From assembly GCA_947166155.1 (NCBI GenBank), contig CAMVDC010000001.1, positions 1-61,465 of the forward strand: DNA of 61,465 nt, written 5' to 3'. Below are positions 12,710 through 60,607 of the stretch, in pieces (within the stretch, counting starts at the first letter, position 1; every line of letters begins with the position of its first letter). The stretch comes from an uncultured Prevotellaceae bacterium (GTDB lineage Bacteria > Bacteroidota > Bacteroidia > Bacteroidales > Bacteroidaceae). Under the pieces are notes generated by a model. The model worked only from the letters and a program-made list of their open reading frames with translations, did no database searches and was not told the DNA's origin. A program made the position numbers and the translations under genes.

Positions 12710-14023
12710 ATGGAATATCTGCTGCATTATACATGGAAGCATCGCCTGTTTCCCTTTGGCGATATGGTCACCACCCACGGCGAGAAGGTCGAGGTGATGA
12801 GTGTCGGTATGCACAATAGCGACGGTGGCCCCGACTTTATCGGTGCGCGGCTGAAGATTGGCGGTGTGGAATGGGCTGGCAATGTAGAGATTCACATGCG
12901 CTCGAGCGACTGGTACCGGCATCATCACGACACCGATGCTGCCTACGACACGGTGGTGTTGCATGTGGTGGGGGAGGCCGATCGCGAGGTATATACACAC
13001 AGCGGTGTATGCCTGCCCCAGCTGGTGTTACGTGTCCCCGACGAGGTGAACGAAAACTATGAGCGGCTGAACCATGCCGACAGTCATCCGCGGTGTCAGG
13101 CCGTGTTGAGGCTGTTGCCCAGGGTCAGTATTACGTCGTGGCTTTCGTCGTTGTGTGTGGAGCGTCTGCACTCACGAGTCGACCAGTTGGATGTGCGCAG
13201 AGGTCAGTTAGGACAGAGTTGGGAAGATGTGGCCTTTGTCACCGTGGCACGCAACTTTGGTTTCGGAAAGAATGGCGATGCATTCGAGCGATGGGCCATG
13301 GCGCTGTCGACCAGCGCTATGAACAAACACCGCGACGACTTGTTTCAGGTCGAGGCACTCTTTTTCGGGACAGCAGGATTGCTGGCAGCCGAGGCTGATG
13401 CCTCCATGCCCGACTACTACCGACGCTTGCAGGCAGAATGGAAATACCTGTCGCGTAAGTTCGGATTGAAACCCATCGACGCCACGGCGTGGCAGTTCCT
13501 GCGTATGCGTCCGCAGAATTTTCCTTACACCCGCATTGCCCAGTTGGCCATGCTCTACCACGACGGATGCCTCGGCATGTCGCGCATAATGGGTGCACAG
13601 AATGTAGAAGAACTAATGCCACTGTTCGACACCTCGCTGAGCCATTTCTGGCAAACCCACTACACATTCTCATCTGAGCCCGTGCGCAGGCGCAGCGGTC
13701 AGCTGTCAGCTGCCTCGAAACGACTCATCATCCTCAATAGCGTGGTTCCACTGCTGTTTGCCTATGGCCGATACCGGTCGGACACCGCTTTGGTCGACCG
13801 TGCCCTCTCGTTGCTCGACGAGTTGCCGGCAGAATCAAACCACATCACACGCCAGTGGCAGCAGGCAGGAGTTGAATGTCGTTCGGCTGCCGACTCGCAA
13901 GCCCTTTACCAACTCACCACCCGATATTGCGAAGCCAAAGACTGCCTGCACTGCCGTTTCGGCCATGAATATATGCGTCAGAACCCGGGGTTTTTGAAGG
14001 AGAAGAGGGAGGACGAAAAATGA
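12710..14023 (+). CDS. DUF2851 family protein
   Basis: ATG 12710 (MEYLLHYTWKHRLFPF...GGPDFIGARLKIGGVEWAGNVEIHMRSSDWYRHHH) matches the characteristic DUF2851 N-terminus. The track ORF starts 33 codons upstream. A TATCTTTG box lies 56 nt upstream. Confidence 0.75.
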   Translation: MEYLLHYTWKHRLFPFGDMVTTHGEKVEVMSVGMHNSDGGPDFIGARLKIGGVEWAGNVEIHMRSSDWYRHHHDTDAAYDTVVLHVVGEADREVYTHSGVCLPQLVLRVPDEVNENYERLNHADSHPRCQAVLRLLPRVSITSWLSSLCVERLHSRVDQLDVRRGQLGQSWEDVAFVTVARNFGFGKNGDAFERWAMALSTSAMNKHRDDLFQVEALFFGTAGLLAAEADASMPDYYRRLQAEWKYLSRKFGLKPIDATAWQFLRMRPQNFPYTRIAQLAMLYHDGCLGMSRIMGAQNVEELMPLFDTSLSHFWQTHYTFSSEPVRRRSGQLSAASKRLIILNSVVPLLFAYGRYRSDTALVDRALSLLDELPAESNHITRQWQQAGVECRSAADSQALYQLTTRYCEAKDCLHCRFGHEYMRQNPGFLKEKREDEK

Positions 14024-14099
14024 GTGCGCACTTTCGGGGCCGAGAGTGCGCACTCGCGGGCCTGTGAGTGCGCACTCGCGAGCCTGCGAGTGCGCACTC
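14022..14099 (+). repeat. array of four exactly 22-bp-phased units, each carrying the 12-bp palindrome GAGTGCGCACTC
   Basis: Units start at 14022, 14044, 14066 and 14088. Three cores are exact and one is 11/12. GC-rich 10-nt spacers. The array starts inside the DUF2851 stop codon and is followed by ATTTTTT. Confidence 0.9.
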
Positions 14100-17271: not shown

Positions 17272-17320
17272 TCGTCCCTTTTACTCCCCTTTAACTTCCC
17301 TTTAACTTCCCTTTTAATCT
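17272..17320 (+). repeat. CCCTTTAACTTCC word repeat (complement of the 43640-43690 words)
   Basis: TCGTCCCTTTTACTCCCCTTTAACTTCCCTTTAACTTCCCTTTTAATCT lies immediately upstream of the prmC ATG. Confidence 0.75.
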
Positions 17321-18244
17321 ATGGGCCACCTCTACCGACACATATTGCAACGCCTCACCAGTCACTACTATGCCGACGATCACCGCTCGGCCACAGCCAT
17401 AGCACTTATGTTGCTCGACGAAGTGGCACATCTCGACACAACCCATGTGCTGGCAGGCGACGACGACCATCTCGATGCCGACACCGTGTCCCGTATCAAC
17501 GACATGGCACAACGCCTGGAGCAAGGCGAGCCAGTGCAGTATGTGGTGGGACATACCCAGTTTTGCGGACTCACCATTGATGTCAACCCCTCGGTGCTCA
17601 TACCCCGACCCGAGACCGAAGACCTCGTCAGTTGCATCAACCATCCACATCCCCACCGCATCATCGACCTCGGGACCGGCAGCGGATGCATAGCACTTGC
17701 CCTGAAACACAGGTATCCAGAGGCAGAAGTAACAGCCGCCGACATCTCGGCCGATGCATTGCATACAGCCAGTCGTAATGCCAGCCGCCTGGGCCTGCAA
17801 GTCGGTTTCCGCGAGGCCGACATCCTGAAACTCGACCCCAAGACCCATGAACAGTGGGATGTGATAGTGTCAAACCCACCATACATACATCCCGACGAAT
17901 CGACTGCCATACGCCCACACGTACTCGACCATGAGCCACATTCGGCACTCTTTGTGCCAGCAGCCGACCCACTCATCTTCCATCGCGCCATCATCGGCTA
18001 TGCAGCAGCCACACTCCACCCCCAAGGCGGAGTCGTGGCCCTCGAGGTCAACTGCCGCTATGCATCGCATGTAGCCATGCTCATGCATCAGCATGGCTTG
18101 CAATCAGTGGCTATAGTAGCCGACCGATATGGCCAGCCGCGCATAGTGAGAGGATATAAACCTCCCCTAACCCCTCCCAAGGAAACCTCCCCTAACCCCT
18201 CCCAAGGAGGGGAATTCCATCCGGATGGAAATGGTAAATGGTAA
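17321..18244 (+). CDS. prmC: peptide chain release factor N5-glutamine methyltransferase
   Basis: SAM motif IIDLGTGSGCIALAL and catalytic NPPY (VSNPPYI). The last ~25 codons (PPLTPPKETSPNPSQGGEFHPDGNGKW) are read from an intergenic repeat module, so the native C-terminus is probably shorter. Confidence 0.85.
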   Translation: MGHLYRHILQRLTSHYYADDHRSATAIALMLLDEVAHLDTTHVLAGDDDHLDADTVSRINDMAQRLEQGEPVQYVVGHTQFCGLTIDVNPSVLIPRPETEDLVSCINHPHPHRIIDLGTGSGCIALALKHRYPEAEVTAADISADALHTASRNASRLGLQVGFREADILKLDPKTHEQWDVIVSNPPYIHPDESTAIRPHVLDHEPHSALFVPAADPLIFHRAIIGYAAATLHPQGGVVALEVNCRYASHVAMLMHQHGLQSVAIVADRYGQPRIVRGYKPPLTPPKETSPNPSQGGEFHPDGNGKW

Positions 18245-18306
18245 ATCCGTAAATTGTAAATCCAATAAGTTCCTCCTATCTCCTAAAAAATAAATAGTAA
18301 ATCATA
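18161..18306 (+). repeat. composite intergenic cassette (C-run/G-run hairpins, then CCATCCGGATGG, then GTAAAT words)
   Basis: CCTCCCCTAACCCCTCCCAAGG occurs twice, then GGAGGGGAATTCCATCCGGATGGAA (16-bp palindrome at 18215-18230), then ATGGTAAATGGTAAATCCGTAAATTGTAAATCC...TAAATAGTAAATC. It covers the prmC 3' end and the prmC-recX gap. Confidence 0.8.
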
Positions 18307-22107: not shown

Positions 22108-22262
22108 TTTTATAATGAATAATTTATAATGTTATAATGAATAATGAATAATGAATAATGAATAGCTGATGTCTATCTTCAATCATCTTCATCTATCATC
22201 AATCATCTATCATCTATCATCTATCATTTATCATCAATCATCTATCATCAATCATCAATCAT
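22108..22262 (-). repeat. AATGAATA word repeats plus ATCATCTATC word repeats
   Basis: 22108-22170 reads TATAATGAATAATTTATAATGTTATAATGAATAATGAATAATGAATAGCTGATG. 22170-22262 holds about nine degenerate (C)ATCTATCAT/CAATCAT units. Together they fill the gap between the DUF2752 gene and the antiporter start. Confidence 0.8.
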
Positions 22263-22281
22263 CTTTTATCAATTATGTAGG

Positions 22282-27810: not shown

Positions 27811-28030
27811 CCTCCCCTAACCCCTCTCTTATCTCCCCGAAGGGGAGAGGATGCCATCCGGGGAGAAGACCCCCTCCCCCTGTGGGTACTCCCCCTTTCA
27901 GGTGGGAGAGTCCATCCGGATTGAAATAACTAAATAGTTAAATAGTACATAAATCGTAAATAGTAAATCGTCAAATCGTAAATATTATTTGTTTCCGCTA
28001 TTCATTATTCATTATTAATTATTCATTAAA
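27811..28030 (+). repeat. composite intergenic cassette (complete example)
   Basis: Module order: CCTCCCCTAACCCCTCTC, CTCCCCgaaGGGGAG, CCATCCGG variants (two), TAAATAGTTAAATAGTACATAAATCGTAAATAGTAAATCGTCAAATCGTAAAT, ATTATTTGTTTCCGCTATTCATTATTCATTATTAATTATTCATTAAA, then the dus ATG. Confidence 0.85.
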
Positions 28031-30976: not shown

Positions 30977-31140
30977 ACCGGTCCCCCCCTCTTATCCCCC
31001 CAAAGGGGGAAGATGCCATCCGGATGGAAATAACCAAATAATTAAATAGTACATAAATCGTAAATAGTAAATCGTTAAATCGTAAATGAACAAATAAATA
31101 CAAATGGTAAATGGTAAATCTGTAAATAGTAAATGAGATT
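30977..31140 (+). repeat. composite intergenic cassette (dapB-lepB gap)
   Basis: CCCCCCCTCTTATCCCCCCaaaGGGGGAAGATG, then CCATCCGGATGG (31016-31027), then TAAAT words. Positions 31016-31087 are 94% identical (68/72) to 27912-27983. Confidence 0.88.
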
Positions 31141-36285: not shown

Positions 36286-36995
36286 AGACAGCAGTAATCA
36301 TGGCCGCCGGCATGGGAACCCGCTTCGGCAAGATGACCGAAACCATGCCTAAGGGCTTTATTCCATACAAAGGAAAGGCGATGGTGGTGCGTAGCATAGA
36401 GACACTCATCGGTTGCGGCATCGAGCGCATCATTATCGGTACGGGCTACCAGCACGAGTGTTATGATGCGTTGAAGGAGCAATATCCGCAAATAGAGTGT
36501 GTGCTTTCGCCACGATATGCCGAGACCAACAGCATGTACACCCTATGGAACTGTCGCGAAGCAATAGGCAGCGACGACTTCCTGCTGCTTGAGTCCGACC
36601 TCGTGTTCGAGCCACGAGCCATCCGCGAACTCATCGATTGCGCTTACGAATCGGCTATGCTCATCACACCTGTCACCAAGTTTCAAGACCAATACTACGT
36701 GGAAATGAACTCGAAGTGCGAACTGGTAGCATGTTCGACCAACGAGCACGACATACATCCGCAAGGCGAATTGGTGGGCATACACAAGTTGAGCAACAAG
36801 TTCTACAAGACATGTATCGACGACTATGCAACCAAGGTAGAAGCACAGCCAAAGCTGGGATATGAATACCAGCTGCTCCATACATCCAGGCACTTGATGC
36901 CGATGAATGTGTTGAGGCTCGAAGGACTGCAATGGTATGAAATCGACGATATCGACGACCTCACATTTGCCGAGCAACATGTGAAGATAGAATGA
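36282..36995 (+). CDS. LicC-like nucleotidyltransferase (candidate phosphonate-specific cytidylyltransferase, PntC-like)
   Basis: ATG 36282 (the track ORF starts 30 codons earlier, inside aepY). MKTAVIMAAGMGTRFGKMTETMPKGFIP is the NTP-transferase G-loop. The C-terminal WYEIDDIDDLTFAE matches the LicC family ending. Confidence 0.75.
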   Translation: MKTAVIMAAGMGTRFGKMTETMPKGFIPYKGKAMVVRSIETLIGCGIERIIIGTGYQHECYDALKEQYPQIECVLSPRYAETNSMYTLWNCREAIGSDDFLLLESDLVFEPRAIRELIDCAYESAMLITPVTKFQDQYYVEMNSKCELVACSTNEHDIHPQGELVGIHKLSNKFYKTCIDDYATKVEAQPKLGYEYQLLHTSRHLMPMNVLRLEGLQWYEIDDIDDLTFAEQHVKIE

Positions 36996-37062
36996 ATAAT
37001 TAATAATTAATAATGAATAGCGGATGCTACGTTAATTAATAATGAATAGCGGATGCTTGAGC
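36991..37062 (+). repeat. two copies of the AATAATGAATAGCGGATGCT word (same family and orientation as 38216-38415)
   Basis: AATGAATAATTAATAATTAATAATGAATAGCGGATGCTACG is followed by TTAATTAATAATGAATAGCGGATGCTTGAGC, directly after the nucleotidyltransferase stop and 42 nt before aepZ. Confidence 0.85.
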
Positions 37063-37103: not shown

Positions 37104-38219
37104 ATGACTACACCCATAATTCCTACAATAAAGCGAAATGTGCTGCTCAACCCGGGTCCGGCCACAACGACCGACACTGTGAAGATGGCACAAGTGGTGC
37201 CCGACATCTGTCCGCGCGAAAAGGAATTTGCAGGCCTAATGAAAGGTTTGCGTTCCGACTTGCTGCGCGTGGCACACGCACCGGCCGACCAATTCACTGC
37301 AGTGCTTTTCTGCGGTTCGGGCACTATAAACATCGATATATGTATCAACTCGTTGCTGCCCGAAGGCAAGAAGATTCTGGTGGTGAACAACGGTGCTTAC
37401 AACAGCCGCGCCGTCGAGGTGTGCCAGATGTATCACTTGCCATATATCGACCTGAAGTCGAGTGTGTTTGAGCGGCCTAACCTTGCCGACATAGAACGTA
37501 CGCTCAACGAAAACCCCGATGTGGCTGTGGTGTATTGCTGCCACCACGAGACAGGCACAGGCGTTCTCAACCCCATTCGCGAGATTGGAGCCATGGCACA
37601 TCGGCACGGAGCCATTTTCATAAGCGACACCACATCGACCCTTGGCATGATACCGTTCGACATGGTTGAAGATAATGTCGATTTCTGCATGGCATCAGCA
37701 CAGAAAGGGCTCATGGCCATGTCGGGCTTGTCGTTCATCATTGGCAGGAAAGACATCATCGAAGCATCGAAACACTATCCGACACGCTCATACTACTGCA
37801 ACCTATATATGCAGTACGATTACTTCGAGCGTACCGGCGAGATGCATTTCACCCCACCCGTTCAGACCATCTATGCCACAATCCAGGCACTCAAAGAGTA
37901 TTTTGCCGAGGGCGAGGAAGCCAAGTTTGCCCGCCACCGCCGAGTGTATGAAGCCATACGCCGCGGAGTAGCACGCCTCGGCCTCGAGACAGTCATCGAC
38001 CCCGCCATCGAGTCAGGTCTTGTGGTGTCGGTGAAATACCCCGACGACCCACATTTCTCGTTCGAGCGTGTACACGACTACTGCTACGAACGCGGATTCA
38101 CCATCTATCCTGGCAAGATAAGCACCACCAACACCTTCCGCCTCTGTGCGCTCGGAACCATCGATGTGCAGGACATCGAAGACTTCTTCGTGGTATTTGA
38201 ACAGGCACTGAGGAGTTAA
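37104..38219 (+). CDS. aepZ: 2-aminoethylphosphonate:pyruvate aminotransferase (class V aminotransferase)
   Basis: LLNPGPATTTDTVKMAQVVPDICPREKEF N-terminus and the PLP-lysine region MASAQKGLMAMSGLSF. Located inside the phosphonate gene cluster. Confidence 0.8.
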   Translation: MTTPIIPTIKRNVLLNPGPATTTDTVKMAQVVPDICPREKEFAGLMKGLRSDLLRVAHAPADQFTAVLFCGSGTINIDICINSLLPEGKKILVVNNGAYNSRAVEVCQMYHLPYIDLKSSVFERPNLADIERTLNENPDVAVVYCCHHETGTGVLNPIREIGAMAHRHGAIFISDTTSTLGMIPFDMVEDNVDFCMASAQKGLMAMSGLSFIIGRKDIIEASKHYPTRSYYCNLYMQYDYFERTGEMHFTPPVQTIYATIQALKEYFAEGEEAKFARHRRVYEAIRRGVARLGLETVIDPAIESGLVVSVKYPDDPHFSFERVHDYCYERGFTIYPGKISTTNTFRLCALGTIDVQDIEDFFVVFEQALRS

Positions 38220-38415
38220 TGAATAATTAATAATAATGAATAGCGGATGCTCTTTGTTAATGAATAATTAATAATGAATAGCGGATGCTCTTTGTTAATG
38301 AATAATTAATAATGAATAGCGGATGCTTTTTGTTAATGAATAATTAATAATGAATAGCTGAAGCTCTTTGTTAATGAATAATTAATAGCGGATGCTTGGT
38401 GCACAGCGGATGCTA
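38216..38415 (+). repeat. tandem repeat, 38-bp unit TTAATGAATAATTAATAATGAATAGCGGATGCTCTTTG, ~5 copies
   Basis: Units at 38216 (41 bp), 38257, 38295 and 38333, with a degenerate copy at 38371. The array starts at the aepZ stop codon and ends 28 nt before the licD start. Confidence 0.92.
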
Positions 38416-42160: not shown

Positions 42161-42328
42161 CGTCATGCATCTTTTCGATGGCAAAGATAGTAATTATTTC
42201 ACATTCCGACGCTCACAATCACCGATTATTTTGCCAAAGACCTCATATTCCTCGTGCCCATCAGCGGCTTTATCAGCCAAAGCTGATATTTCGGTCGCAT
42301 GCGCCTGGCATCCGACAAAACCCTGAGC

Positions 42329-42634
42329 CTACGCACTAAAAACCTCGCGACTACGCATGAAAAAACTCGCGAGTGCGGAGGAATTCTTTAATTTGCGACG
42401 CAAATTATTAAATTTACGTCGCAGTTTTATTAATTTTCCACCGAAAATTATTAAATTTACGTCGCAAATTAAAGAATTACTCCGCACTCGCAGGCAAATT
42501 AGTCCGCACTCGCAGCAAAATTACTGCGCACTCGCAATAAAACTTAACCGTTCCTTCAATAAAACTTCACCGTTCTTCCAGCAAGACTCTACCTTTCTTT
42601 CAGCAAAACTCACCGTTCTCGCTGCAAAAAGAGG
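42329..42634 (+). repeat. ~14-unit array of 22-bp phased repeats around a 98-bp core bounded by 25-bp inverted repeats (element A)
   Basis: Each unit has an A/T-rich half and a G/C-rich half (CGCACTCG, ACGTCGCA or ACCGTTC types). Core IR arms are AATTCTTTAATTTGCGACGCAAATT (42381-42405) and its complement with one mismatch. The 113-bp segment 42380-42492 is 92% identical to 54321-54433. Confidence 0.9.
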
Positions 42635-42799
42635 GTGGCGTGGTGCATGGTGATATGCGCGCGTGTGCGCGTGTAATATTAATAAGGTGTGGTGCATGTA
42701 GTGGCAGGCAGTTGGTCGTTTCGCGTGGTGGATGATGGCGTTGAGGCCGATTTATGCATATTTCGTGTGATAAGGTCGGGTGGTTACATGGTTTTTTCG

Positions 42800-43592: not shown

Positions 43593-43800
43593 AGCCCCCC
43601 TAACACCTCCAAAGCCCCCTCCCTGAATAATTGAAAGGAAGTTAAAGGGAAGTAAAAGGGAGTTAAAAGGGAGTTAAAGGGACGATACCTACTCCGAGGC
43701 AACATCCGTCCTTTTAACTTCATAGCGAAGCGATAACTTCTTTTCCATTCCTTTCCATTCCTAAATAGTAAATAGTAAATCTGTAAATAGTAAATAACAA
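43593..43800 (+). repeat. composite intergenic cassette variant with AAGGGAAGTTAA words
   Basis: CCCCCCTAACACCTCCAAAGCCCCCTCCC, then GGAAGTTAAAGGGAAGTAAAAGGGAGTTAAAAGGGAGTTAAAGGGA (the complement of 17272-17320), then TTCCATTCCTTTCCATTCC, then TAAATAGTAAATAGTAAATCTGTAAATAGTAAATAAC. Confidence 0.8.
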
Positions 43801-45311: not shown

Positions 45312-45348
45312 CCGCTATTCATTATTCATTATTAATTATTCATTAAAA
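45312..45348 (+). repeat. CCGCTATTCATTATTCATTATTAATTATTCATTAAAA module upstream of groEL
   Basis: A stretch of 36-37 bp is identical to 27995-28030, which lies directly upstream of the dus start. Confidence 0.9.
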
Positions 45349-52961: not shown

Positions 52962-53075
52962 GGTCTTGTAATTGAGTTCTTGAGTTTTTGAGTTCTTGAG
53001 TTCTTGAGTTTTTAAGTTCTTTAGTTTTTGCGAGACCTCAAGACCTTACGAGCTCAAGACCTAAAAAAACTTACT
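52962..53075 (-). repeat. GAGTTCTTGAG / CTCAAGACC word repeats
   Basis: TTGAGTTCTTGAGTTTTTGAGTTCTTGAGTTCTTGAGTTTTTAAGTTCTTTAG is followed by the partly complementary GACCTCAAGACCTTACGAGCTCAAGACC. It lies downstream of the Spy-like gene and before its terminator. Confidence 0.75.
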
Positions 53076-53702: not shown

Positions 53703-54098
53703 CTACCGCGAGGGGAATTTTCCCCTATGTTCGCACATCAGCGCCACGACATACGCCACGGCTACACCCGCGGTGTATGCCACCATGTCGGACACAAGGA
53801 ATCCCTGCCCCAGGACCAGGTGTCCCACCACGGTACTCCTCACGGCGCATAGCCACGGCCACGTGATGAGTTGACTCAGTTCGACGGCATAGCAGGTGAT
53901 GAGCGCTGCCACTGCCACCCGGCTCAACTTCCATCCTGCTGCCGCTGCGCGCCACAAGCAGAACATCATCACCGCCCAAAGGCCATCGCCCACACAGGCA
54001 GGTATCCACCCACAGCGGCGCGACAGCAACCCCGCAACCACCACCAGGGCAGTGGCCGCAAGATATATCATTCGTAGTTTCATGTGTGTATGCTTCAT
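53703..54098 (-). CDS. DUF2809-like small membrane protein
   Basis: 131 aa with four hydrophobic segments. LLSRRCGWIPACVGDGLWAVMMFCLW resembles the DUF2809 pattern. Start ambiguous (M1, M6 or M10). Confidence 0.45.
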   Translation of the reverse strand: MKHTHMKLRMIYLAATALVVVAGLLSRRCGWIPACVGDGLWAVMMFCLWRAAAAGWKLSRVAVAALITCYAVELSQLITWPWLCAVRSTVVGHLVLGQGFLVSDMVAYTAGVAVAYVVALMCEHRGKFPSR

Positions 54099-54204
54099 CG
54101 TTTTCTTACATAAACGGAACTACACCTTATTATATTATATATAGCACGCAATAATAATAAATATAGCACGCAGTTTCTTTCATAGGGCATCAAAACACCA
54201 CGCG

Positions 54205-54490
54205 GATATGCAGGTTTTGCTGCGAGAGCGGTGTAATTTGCTTGCGAGTACGTAGAAGTTTTGCTGCGAGAGCGGTGTAATTTGCTTGCGAGTACGTAGA
54301 AGTTTTGCTGCGAGTGCGTAGGAATTCTTTAATTTGCGACGCAAATTAATAAAATTGCGACGCAGTTTTATTAATTTTCCACCGAAAAACAATAAATTTG
54401 CGTCGCAAATTAAAGAATTAGTCCGCACTCGCAAGGTTTTTACTGCGCACTCGCAGGTAAATTACTACGCACTCGCGAGGTTTCTTCTCT
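54205..54490 (+). repeat. ~13-unit array of 22-bp phased repeats around the same core (element B)
   Basis: Perfect 25-bp inverted repeats at 54322-54346 and 54395-54419, separated by 48 bp. An exact 44-bp tandem duplication spans 54214-54257 and 54258-54301. The left-arm TGCGAG-GCG units are the complement of the right-arm CGCACTCGCA units. Confidence 0.9.
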
Positions 54491-54516
54491 GTACTTGCAT
54501 GCAAAAAACATGTGCA

Positions 54517-55536
54517 CTATATGGCATCGACGACGTTGAATCCGAAATCGAACAAGGTCTGTGCCTCGGTGAATCGCGATGCATGGGTCTTGCTCTTGAG
54601 CAGTACGAGGGTGAGCGTGGAGCCTCCGGGGCGGCTGACCGACGCAGCGAGACACGCACCGGCATTGCGGGTGAAGCCTGTCTTCACACCATTGCAGCCG
54701 TCGTACTGGTTTAGCAGTTGGTTGGTGTTCCAGCATGGCATGTGGCGGCCGTCGGTGAGTGGAAGGTCGGCATAGGGTGTGCTCACGATTTCAGCAAACA
54801 GGGTGTCGGCCATGCAGTAGCGTGTGAGGACGAGCAGGTCGCGTGCGGTGCTGTAGTTGCTGTCGTTGGGCAGGCCGTTGGGATTGGCAAAATGGGTGCT
54901 GTCCATGTGCAGGTAAGCCGCCTTGTCGTTCATCATCGAGACAAAAGCCAGCGTGTCGCCTGCTATATGCTGCGCAATGGCGTATGCCGCCACATTGTCG
55001 CTCTGCAACATCATCTCGACCAGGAGGTTGTGGAGTGTGAACTGATAGCCGGGGCGCACCATGGCACCGGTGGTGACGAAGATGTCGGGAGTGATGACGA
55101 CAGTGTCGCTGAGGTTGCCATGCTCCAATGCAATGAGGCATGTCATCATCTTGGTAAGGCTGGCGGGATACATGCGGCGGTCGGCATCGCGGGCACTGAG
55201 CATCATGCCCGACGAGTCATCGACCATAATCCACGACTCGGCAGTGAGGCGGGCGAGCGATGCGTAGCCGTCGATGGTGTCGATGTTGACGTGGGTGCTG
55301 AGGGTGGTGTCGATGGTGCAGGCACGCTCCAGTCGCAACTGCTCGGCACGGCGCGATGAAGAGTCGCCGCAACTTGAAAAGCTTAGAGTGGCGAGCACTG
55401 CCATCAACCAACAACGAATGATGATTGATGAGCGGCCGATGCTGGTGGTTTTATCCCTTTGGATGCTGGTGGTTTTATCCCTTTGGACGCTGGTGGTTTT
55501 ATCCCTTTGGATGCTGGTGGTTTTATCCCATTCCAT
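54517..55536 (-). CDS. D-alanyl-D-alanine carboxypeptidase (S11 serine peptidase, PBP5/6-like)
   Basis: SxxK motif PASLTKMMT, then LQSDN (SxN) and a C-terminal KTGFT (KTG). Lipobox-like LSFSSC. The first 35 codons are four octapeptide repeats encoded by a 24-bp tandem repeat. The alternative start is 55404. Confidence 0.85.
   Translation of the reverse strand: MEWDKTTSIQRDKTTSVQRDKTTSIQRDKTTSIGRSSIIIRCWLMAVLATLSFSSCGDSSSRRAEQLRLERACTIDTTLSTHVNIDTIDGYASLARLTAESWIMVDDSSGMMLSARDADRRMYPASLTKMMTCLIALEHGNLSDTVVITPDIFVTTGAMVRPGYQFTLHNLLVEMMLQSDNVAAYAIAQHIAGDTLAFVSMMNDKAAYLHMDSTHFANPNGLPNDSNYSTARDLLVLTRYCMADTLFAEIVSTPYADLPLTDGRHMPCWNTNQLLNQYDGCNGVKTGFTRNAGACLAASVSRPGGSTLTLVLLKSKTHASRFTEAQTLFDFGFNVVDAI
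55441..55530 (-). repeat. 24-bp tandem repeat, 3.75 copies (GCTGGTGGTTTTATCCCTTTGGAT)
   Basis: Units at 55441, 55465 and 55489, with a partial unit at 55513. On the minus strand it encodes DKTTS(I/V)QR octapeptides at the 5' end of the carboxypeptidase ORF. It also contains the AlkD-like gene stop codon. Confidence 0.9.
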
Positions 55537-57540: not shown

Positions 57541-57665
57541 TTACAGCCATAACAACTCCATACACAAACAACAACTCCATACACAAACAACAACTCCATA
57601 CACATAGCAACAACCTCATACACAACCTACAACCTCATACACATAGCAACAACTTCATACACAAA
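57541..57665 (+). repeat. G-poor C/A-rich tandem words downstream of the BASS transporter
   Basis: AACAACTCCATACACAAACA occurs three times, followed by variants such as AGCAACAACCTCATACACA. Only a handful of G residues occur in about 125 nt. Confidence 0.8.
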
Positions 57666-60540: not shown

Positions 60541-60607
60541 AATCGTATTTACTATTTACAGATTTACAATTTACGATTTAATTCTATTTGTTTTCCATTT
60601 TCCATCT
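60541..60607 (-). repeat. TAAAT/TTCCATT word module in the frdC-frdA gap
   Basis: The minus strand reads AGATGGAAAATGGAAAACAAATAGAATTAAATCGTAAATTGTAAATCTGTAAATAGTAAATACGATT and is followed by the frdA ATG. Confidence 0.8.

Follow-up and report, generated by a model that had tools for sequence, protein, structure and literature searches.

A 22-bp-phased palindromic element belonging to a high-copy intergenic repeat family of rumen Bacteroidales

The window, i.e. the whole 61,465-nt stretch of DNA analysed, contains two minus-strand genes separated by 418 bp. Given its apparent limits, a palindromic repeat element, named B, fills nearly all of this intergenic space. The locus is composed as follows.

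53703-54098, minus strand: DUF2809 gene (Pfam PF10990, E = 2.8e-23), with its start facing the left end of B
~54117-54505, plus strand: element B as a whole, by its apparent limits; ~300-400 bp size class
54117-54173, plus strand: terminal T module of B (ACACCTTAT, a TA-rich run and GCACGCA), 20 nt from the DUF2809 start codon
54214-54301, plus strand: 44-bp (two-unit) tandem duplication, defined by sequence identity and polymorphic among strains
54215-54324, plus strand: left array of five head-to-tail, in-register 22-bp units
54323-54347, plus strand: left arm of a perfect 25-nt inverted repeat (AATTCTTTAATTTGCGACGCAAATT)
54325-54417, plus strand: core of B, 93 bp, AT-rich, with four 21-bp palindromic sub-units
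54335: box1 of the core, TGCGACGCA
54356: box2 of the core
54375-54388: stem-loop of the core, TTTTC-CACC-GAAAA
54399: box3 of the core, TGCGTCGCA
54395-54419, plus strand: right arm of the perfect 25-nt inverted repeat
54418-54505, plus strand: right array of three inverted units (consensus TTACTCCGCACTCGCAGCAAAA) and one degenerate fourth
54517-55536, minus strand: peptidase S11 D-Ala-D-Ala carboxypeptidase gene (Pfam PF00768, E = 4e-49), with its stop facing the right end of B

A previous sequence-only reading had placed B at 54205-54490, between a DUF2809-like gene and a carboxypeptidase gene. Both gene assignments are borne out by Pfam. The limits were too narrow, the apparent reach extending from ~54117, at a terminal AT/CG module, to ~54505, and the edge of the right array lies 12 nt from the carboxypeptidase stop codon. 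A canonical TAnnTTTG promoter box was not found for the DUF2809 gene, and exact-protein look-ups with CysS, DUF2809 and carboxypeptidase gave no match. The predicted N-terminus of the carboxypeptidase contains DKTTSIQR repeats, encoded by a 24-bp unit present 3.8 times at 55438-55529; a lipoprotein-type signal (LSFSSC) follows this stretch, which may therefore be a 5′ leader and not coding. The same repeat is one unit (24 nt) shorter in run X36, where one contig also omits 447 nt, in frame, within the carboxypeptidase gene (54846-55294). The contig represents a deletion allele or, alternatively, was assembled via a paralogue.

Concerning the anatomy of B, the counts of five left and three right 22-bp units proposed previously agree with the in-register arrays, and the exact 44-bp tandem duplication (54214-54257 = 54258-54301) is confirmed. 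The 25-nt inverted repeat is perfect, as claimed, but its left arm occupies 54323-54347 and not 54322-54346; with the right arm at 54395-54419, the spacer is therefore 47 nt and not 48 nt. The surrounding palindrome is imperfect, with 42-nt arms that are 90% complementary and 56-nt arms that are 75% complementary. In the left array, GCGAGAGCGGTG and GCGAGTACGTAG variants alternate; in the right array, whose consensus TTACTCCGCACTCGCAGCAAAA is the reverse complement of the left unit, the motif CGCACTCGC recurs at 54424, 54446 and 54468, i.e. with a spacing of exactly 22 bp. All 15 occurrences of the corresponding 9-mer (GCGAGTGCG/CGCACTCGC) in the 61-kb window fall inside four loci, whereas ~0.5 occurrences are expected by chance. 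Predicted as single-stranded DNA, the B region folds with −76 kcal/mol, compared with −39 ± 3 kcal/mol for shuffled sequences (z = −11). The centres of the cores of B (54375-54383) and of a sister copy, A (42434-42442), read TTTTCCACC and match the DnaA-box consensus TTWTNCACA at 8 of 9 positions, a resemblance taken as coincidence.

Element A and other related stretches in the window, together with the T modules found in further copies of the family (numbered by locus), are listed here.

42318-42694, plus strand: element A, sister copy of B, with three left units, core (42384-42476), three right units and four type-2 units
42639-42694: T module of A, inverted
14022-14099: core-less 22-bp array 1, made of GAGTGCGCACTC palindromes and a GC-rich linker, beginning at the DUF2851 stop codon
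29386-29465: core-less 22-bp array 2, related to the array at 14022, with the same box and a GC-rich linker
L005, 375-422: T module
L007, 2233-2286: T module
L010, 706-758: T module
L011, 346-400: T module

Elements A and B are ~92% identical across ~190 bp, and their alignment confirms that they share the same orientation. The type-2 units of A correspond to CACCGTTCT, and outer type-2 units are also present in some other copies. The proposal that left units of B are the reverse complement of right units of A holds approximately: GCGAGAGCGGTGTAATTTGCT and the reverse complement of AGCAAAACTCACCGTTCTCGC agree at 17 of 21 positions. The unit layout supports the further proposal that each copy is a large palindrome with differently truncated arms. 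The T module lies on the left in B and, inverted, on the right in A, which fits differently truncated versions of one larger palindrome.

The T module has the general form ACACCTTAT-(TA)n-ACGCGCG, also with a (CG/CA)n tail, and is found at one end in six copies; a T-like stretch after the array in L020 was spotted by eye only. That of B (54117-54173), which holds a 22-bp direct repeat (54129-54172), is the probable outer left end of the element. With its alternating purines and pyrimidines, the T module is prone to Z-DNA formation or unwinding. The unit stem of the family is CTGCG-N4-CGCAG, and the core-less arrays are built on a 12-nt palindrome (GAGTGCGCACTC). Arrays of this type also occur in L020 (1930-2015) and L022 (5075-5160), at a shared orthologous intergenic site upstream of a DUF4890-like gene; the relatives concerned show 87% and 84% CysS identity. 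The array at 14022-14099 has an A run on one side and a T run on the other, resembling a bidirectional terminator.

Modular short repeats, also of other kinds, are unusually abundant in the intergenic DNA of the window genome. Runs of TAAATAG/TAAATCG heptamers with a 15-nt super-period are found at 27931-27984, 31054-31134, 43762-43796, 18225-18263 and 60547-60580, of which those at 27931, 31054, 43762 and 60547 immediately precede a gene start on the matching strand. A 35-nt AT-rich leader (GCTATTCATTATTCATTATTAATTATTCATTAAAA) is present in identical form at 27996-28030 and 45313-45347, adjoining the ATG of a dus gene in one case and another gene start in the second. Further examples are a 38-bp unit containing AATGAATAGCGGATGCT and repeated 4.5 times (38215-38387 and 36991-37050), GGGAAGTTAAAGG 11-mers in both orientations (43634-43682 and 17275-17314), TCTATCA repeated 13 times (22112-22264), a 19-bp unit repeated six times (57551-57665) and TTGAGTTC repeated seven times (52972-53030).

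Thirteen members of the family to which A and B belong were examined: these two, two from Bacteroidaceae bacterium RGIG4776 (a roe-deer rumen MAG) and nine from rumen metagenome contigs. The RGIG4776 copies were retrieved with an arm-derived 19-mer. The nine metagenome copies were found with a two-arm pattern, which gave no hit in viral contigs; as this pattern demanded that both arms be exact, arm conservation is partly built into the 13-copy sample. The layout consists of n copies of a unit U (TTTTGC-TGCGAGTGCGGAGT-AA), the 93-bp core and n copies of U inverted. The arm motifs are spaced by exactly 65 nt in all 13 copies, and both arrays keep an exact 22-bp register, over up to nine units, in 13 of 13. 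Wherever the innermost left and right boxes both match the 9-mer (seven copies), they are 114 bp apart. Each unit combines a conserved ~14-nt box, TGCGAGTGCGGAGT, with a variable 8-nt linker, which is AT in this family. The left-unit consensus TTTTGCTGCGAGTGCGTAGAAA (25 units) corresponds to the reverse-complemented right-unit consensus TTTTGCTGCGAGTGCGGAGTAA (37 units); thus, a single unit builds both arms, in opposite orientations. The core sub-units comprise three TTGCGWCGCAA boxes and one TTTTC-CACC-GAAAA stem-loop. The copies are all intergenic; they occur in both orientations, and their neighbouring genes are divergent, tandem or convergent, depending on the copy.

Searches of Rfam 15 gave no family at gathering score, generic hairpin (miRNA-precursor) models scoring far below it, and searches of phage, plasmid and viral-contig sequences gave no match to the element. 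In a literature text search with the motifs, no relevant paper contained any of them. From these sequence and text comparisons, the family, of which abundant rumen Bacteroidales carry tens of copies per genome, appears to be undescribed so far. An iteron-type replication origin was rejected in view of the many chromosomal copies, the housekeeping neighbours and the lack of a plasmid match; more generally, CRISPR, integron attC and replication origin are ruled out by anatomy and context.

The window sequence is present in sheep and cattle rumen/gut metagenomes, and MAGs of Bacteroidaceae or Prevotellaceae supply the closest named CysS homologues. Depth in DNA run X1 is ~15 over the unique flanks, compared with 825-2276 for the core, with 116-164 contigs matching; several of the core contigs continue into other unique flanks at depth 11-17, the window genome's own level. 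The core excess is also seen in the DNA-type runs X2, X3, X5, X12, X14, X17 and X19, and in X36 and X37 (type unrecorded), the core being 50-150 times deeper than the flanks in rumen DNA runs. This excess indicates tens of copies per genome, a figure to be read as an upper bound since other species in the sample contribute. The family almost certainly breaks short-read MAG assemblies: most recovered copies lie at the ends of contigs, where such a repeat would be expected, and a 19-mer shared by both arms of A and B failed to retrieve the window's own sequence from the species-representative genome collection.

Unit numbers vary between strains, in agreement with the earlier proposal of ongoing unit gain and loss. 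Comparison among strains, suggested as a check, reveals whole-unit differences at three loci, namely B, A and one other. Five samples (X5, X14, X17, X19 and X39) have a single 44-bp unit at B, in contigs that span from the unique left flank to the core; three (X1, X36 and X37) have it doubled, their contigs carrying the duplication-specific junction. Element A is 22 nt longer in X19 (one more type-2 unit) and 43 nt shorter in X5. At the third locus (L008 and L010, orthologous loci from two metagenomes), the right arrays differ by 66 + 21 nt between flanks that are ~98% identical. As unit number differs among near-identical strains, it is usable as a VNTR-type strain marker. Other changes concern the core: the 4-nt loop reads CACC in 9 of 13 copies and GGTG in 4, and the A/T centres of the core boxes flip independently among paralogous copies. 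Such flips of loop and box centres are characteristic of palindromes undergoing hairpin or template-switch events.

The earlier suggestion of a foldback or MITE-type mobile element is upheld in part. The family is dispersed, hence once mobile, and its build is foldback-like, but outer terminal inverted repeats, as in a classical MITE, are missing, and neither target-site duplications nor an empty site were found. A classical MITE would be an IS deletion derivative moved by an IS transposase via its terminal repeats, with the 22-bp arrays as an internal minisatellite. Its general traits are those of the family (small, non-coding, intergenic and multi-copy, over 13 copies), a recurrent module (ACACCTTAT...) marks one end in the six copies noted above, and a minisatellite-carrying MITE, BrickBuilt, is a precedent in the Bacteroidota (PMC4596501). 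However, the sole strong inverted repeat is central rather than terminal, the arrays decaying into the flanks, and the T module is found at both ends in none of the 13 copies. No recurrent direct repeat borders the arrays in these copies, whose ends are not sharply definable, and no target-site duplication is definable. Empty sites were found neither at B (13 runs) nor at A (four runs), among strains that are just 1-3% diverged. The homologues fetched for this comparison are more distant (carboxypeptidase, 76% and 63% identity; CysS, 93-84%). Synteny is lost in relatives at 76-87% protein identity and, as the DUF2809-carboxypeptidase neighbourhood is not conserved in them, there is no orthologous empty site to compare. 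The terminal repeat of IS5 type seen in BrickBuilt is absent, and no IS element occurs in the window or in the other sequence examined. A classical MITE is thus quite improbable. Very improbable is an invertible phase-variable switch, in which the 25-nt inverted repeats would be recombinase sites flipping the 47-nt spacer. Bacteroidales are rich in invertons, the perfect repeats do enclose a short asymmetric segment, and loop orientation does vary across family members. However, these flips separate paralogous copies and none occurs within one locus: 13 runs (DNA-type or of unrecorded type) gave no opposite-strand joint at B, and the ortholog L013 has the same orientation. In addition, the spacer is too small for an outward promoter, and no recombinase gene lies nearby.

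Two other readings concern function. According to one, the long hairpin acts in RNA, as a small RNA or as a 3′-UTR terminator or stabilizer of the upstream mRNA. The predicted RNA hairpin is strong (−111 kcal/mol, z = −10.9), the element begins 12 nt past the carboxypeptidase stop codon, carboxypeptidase RNA contigs end at its edge (54512-54531), and the array at 14022 has its terminator-like A and T runs. In five metatranscriptomes, coverage has a depth of 3-5 over DUF2809 (53713-54062) and over the carboxypeptidase gene (from 54512/54531 up), and the unique stretch 54099-54212 is essentially without RNA coverage. A single contig (78 nt, X32) matches any part of the element, even at 80% likeness. 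Carboxypeptidase read-through thus appears to stop at B, evidence that is weak since it comes from low-depth assembled contigs, in which strongly structured RNA may be under-represented. Set against the 50-150-fold DNA excess of the core, the near-absence from RNA indicates that the family is not an abundant RNA. The RNA reading also conflicts with the absence of an Rfam match, with compensatory changes in only 2 of 47 pairs (nine copies found by the arm pattern, with almost invariant pairs) and with copies in both orientations, some of them between divergent promoters. It is therefore improbable, although a terminator side-effect is compatible with the preferred reading given below. Element A itself lies between divergent genes, and its donation of promoters to them is rejected, since both possess canonical Bacteroidetes TAnnTTTG boxes of their own, located outside A. 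According to the other reading, the 14-nt box in every 22 bp and the TTGCGWCGCAA boxes of the core would be cooperative sites for a lineage-specific DNA-binding protein (nucleoid-associated protein, regulator or gyrase-like enzyme), the elements being selected as architectural or regulatory sites of the chromosome. Such a role has been proposed for BIMEs with IHF and gyrase. Every copy combines a conserved box and a variable linker with exact 22-bp phasing, i.e. two helical turns; the innermost boxes of the two arrays keep a constant distance of 114 bp; and the family is scarcely present in RNA. The box also recurs in the window's core-less arrays, there with a GC-rich linker, and at the orthologous intergenic site in the two relatives with 87% and 84% CysS identity. 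Box conservation, helical phasing and the persistence of arrays in two species fit selected protein binding better than a purely selfish or neutral element. However, no candidate protein is at hand, unit number is free to vary among near-identical strains, the copies occupy every kind of genomic context in both orientations, and slippage alone can yield periodicity. Collectively, a phased protein-binding platform is a serious contender, if on balance an unlikely one.

Element B belongs to a family with rigid 22-bp phasing, high copy number and unit polymorphism that is nearly absent from RNA. We favour, with a probability of about 60%, that B is one member of a repeat family that is non-coding, present in many copies and specific to a lineage of rumen Prevotella-like Bacteroidales, and that is of REP/BIME-, BOX-, BrickBuilt- or foldback-like type. 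In this best reading, the family is new, the kind of repeat is already familiar, and the elements act at the DNA level. Replication slippage or unequal exchange would add and remove units, and hairpin or template-switch events inside the palindrome may keep the arms alike while flipping the small loops. Copies would spread in trans by machinery that the element does not encode; by analogy with REP/BIME, the leading candidate is an HUH/Y1 transposase of RAYT type acting on single-stranded DNA. An HUH...Y motif typical of Y1 transposases is present in no frame of the window or of 18 loci, and a tblastn search of plasmids with E. coli RayT gave just Cytophagia-type matches. Counting against the best reading, no mobility event was seen, B being occupied in 13 of 13 runs and A in four of four. 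Locally, B probably serves as a transcription barrier or a protein-binding platform. It could act as a passive structural barrier (terminator or insulator) between the carboxypeptidase and DUF2809 transcription units, and may be prone to cruciform formation. The cruciform-forming regulatory locus suggested in the previous reading would be a possible function.

A more specific and rather doubtful proposal is that box TGCGAGTGCGGAGT, repeated every two helical turns, and the core boxes are the sites of a dedicated protein, either a Bacteroidales-type REP-associated HUH transposase or a nucleoid/architectural protein. If so, Prevotella-like bacteria would have in this family their first described REPIN/BIME-like replicator or chromosome-structuring system, and its foldback build would be new to bacteria. 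The 22-bp phasing around a conserved box offers a handle in the search, among Bacteroidales, for a REP-type transposase or for a new protein with a DNA-binding or architectural role. The family is also a natural test case for the survival of long palindromes in bacterial chromosomes.

Several known systems share features with the family. REP/BIME sequences and REPINs are known from Proteobacteria, and atypical REPs are tied to the Bacteroidetes TnpA-REP subclass 2.6 (PMC6006769; PMC3733652). Like the family, REP/BIME are high-copy, extragenic, GC-rich short units without coding capacity, arranged in clusters and in inverted pairs around a linker that form hairpins or cruciforms, with a mosaic composition that varies by locus. 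Subclass 2.6 REPs (e.g. GCTGGCGCGAGTATCTACTCGTGCC; Table S1, PMC6006769) resemble the GCTG-CGAGTGCG box of the family, a likeness to be read as a lead only. Differences are the absence of a GTAG or CGTC foot from the unit consensus TTTTGCTGCGAGTGCGGAGTAA, the direct 22-bp tandem arrays on each side in place of alternating REPs, and the central AT-rich core, which is a palindrome array with a 21-bp period of its own. A RAYT was not encountered for the family, and the RAYT survey lists no Bacteroidales. Within the same phylum, BrickBuilt of Porphyromonas gingivalis (Klein et al. 2015, PMC4596501) is likewise intergenic and multi-copy, and consists mainly of a minisatellite in which units of ~22-23 nt follow one another without spacers, in numbers that differ between copies and strains. 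BrickBuilt has 23-nt units in one direct array, between a non-repetitive leader and tail with IS5-type terminal repeats GAGACCTTTGCA (PMC4596501), whereas the family has 22-nt units in two inverted arrays flanking a palindromic core. Identity with BrickBuilt was rejected, the period being 22 and not 23 nt and GAGACCTTTGCA being absent near A or B within two mismatches.

The family also bears comparison with elements outside the Bacteroidota. BOX elements of Streptococcus pneumoniae are dispersed, intergenic and modular (boxA, n × boxB, boxC), with variable internal tandem units and outer modules that are partly complementary, so that the element folds; they have no known transposase. The family shares this modularity, the variable tandem units, the folding and the dispersed intergenic location; BOX differs by its unrelated sequence and host, its 45-bp unit and the lack of a symmetric palindrome of one unit. 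The closest anatomical match is provided by the foldback (FB) transposons of eukaryotes, whose long inverted arms consist of tandem short sub-repeats, in numbers that vary by copy and by arm, around a short central loop. They differ from the family in being eukaryotic and in having kilobase-scale arms, defined ends and target duplications, and in that some copies carry transposase genes. Judged by this comparison, the family is closest in apparent lifestyle to REP/BIME, BOX and BrickBuilt, and in anatomy to the eukaryotic foldback elements.
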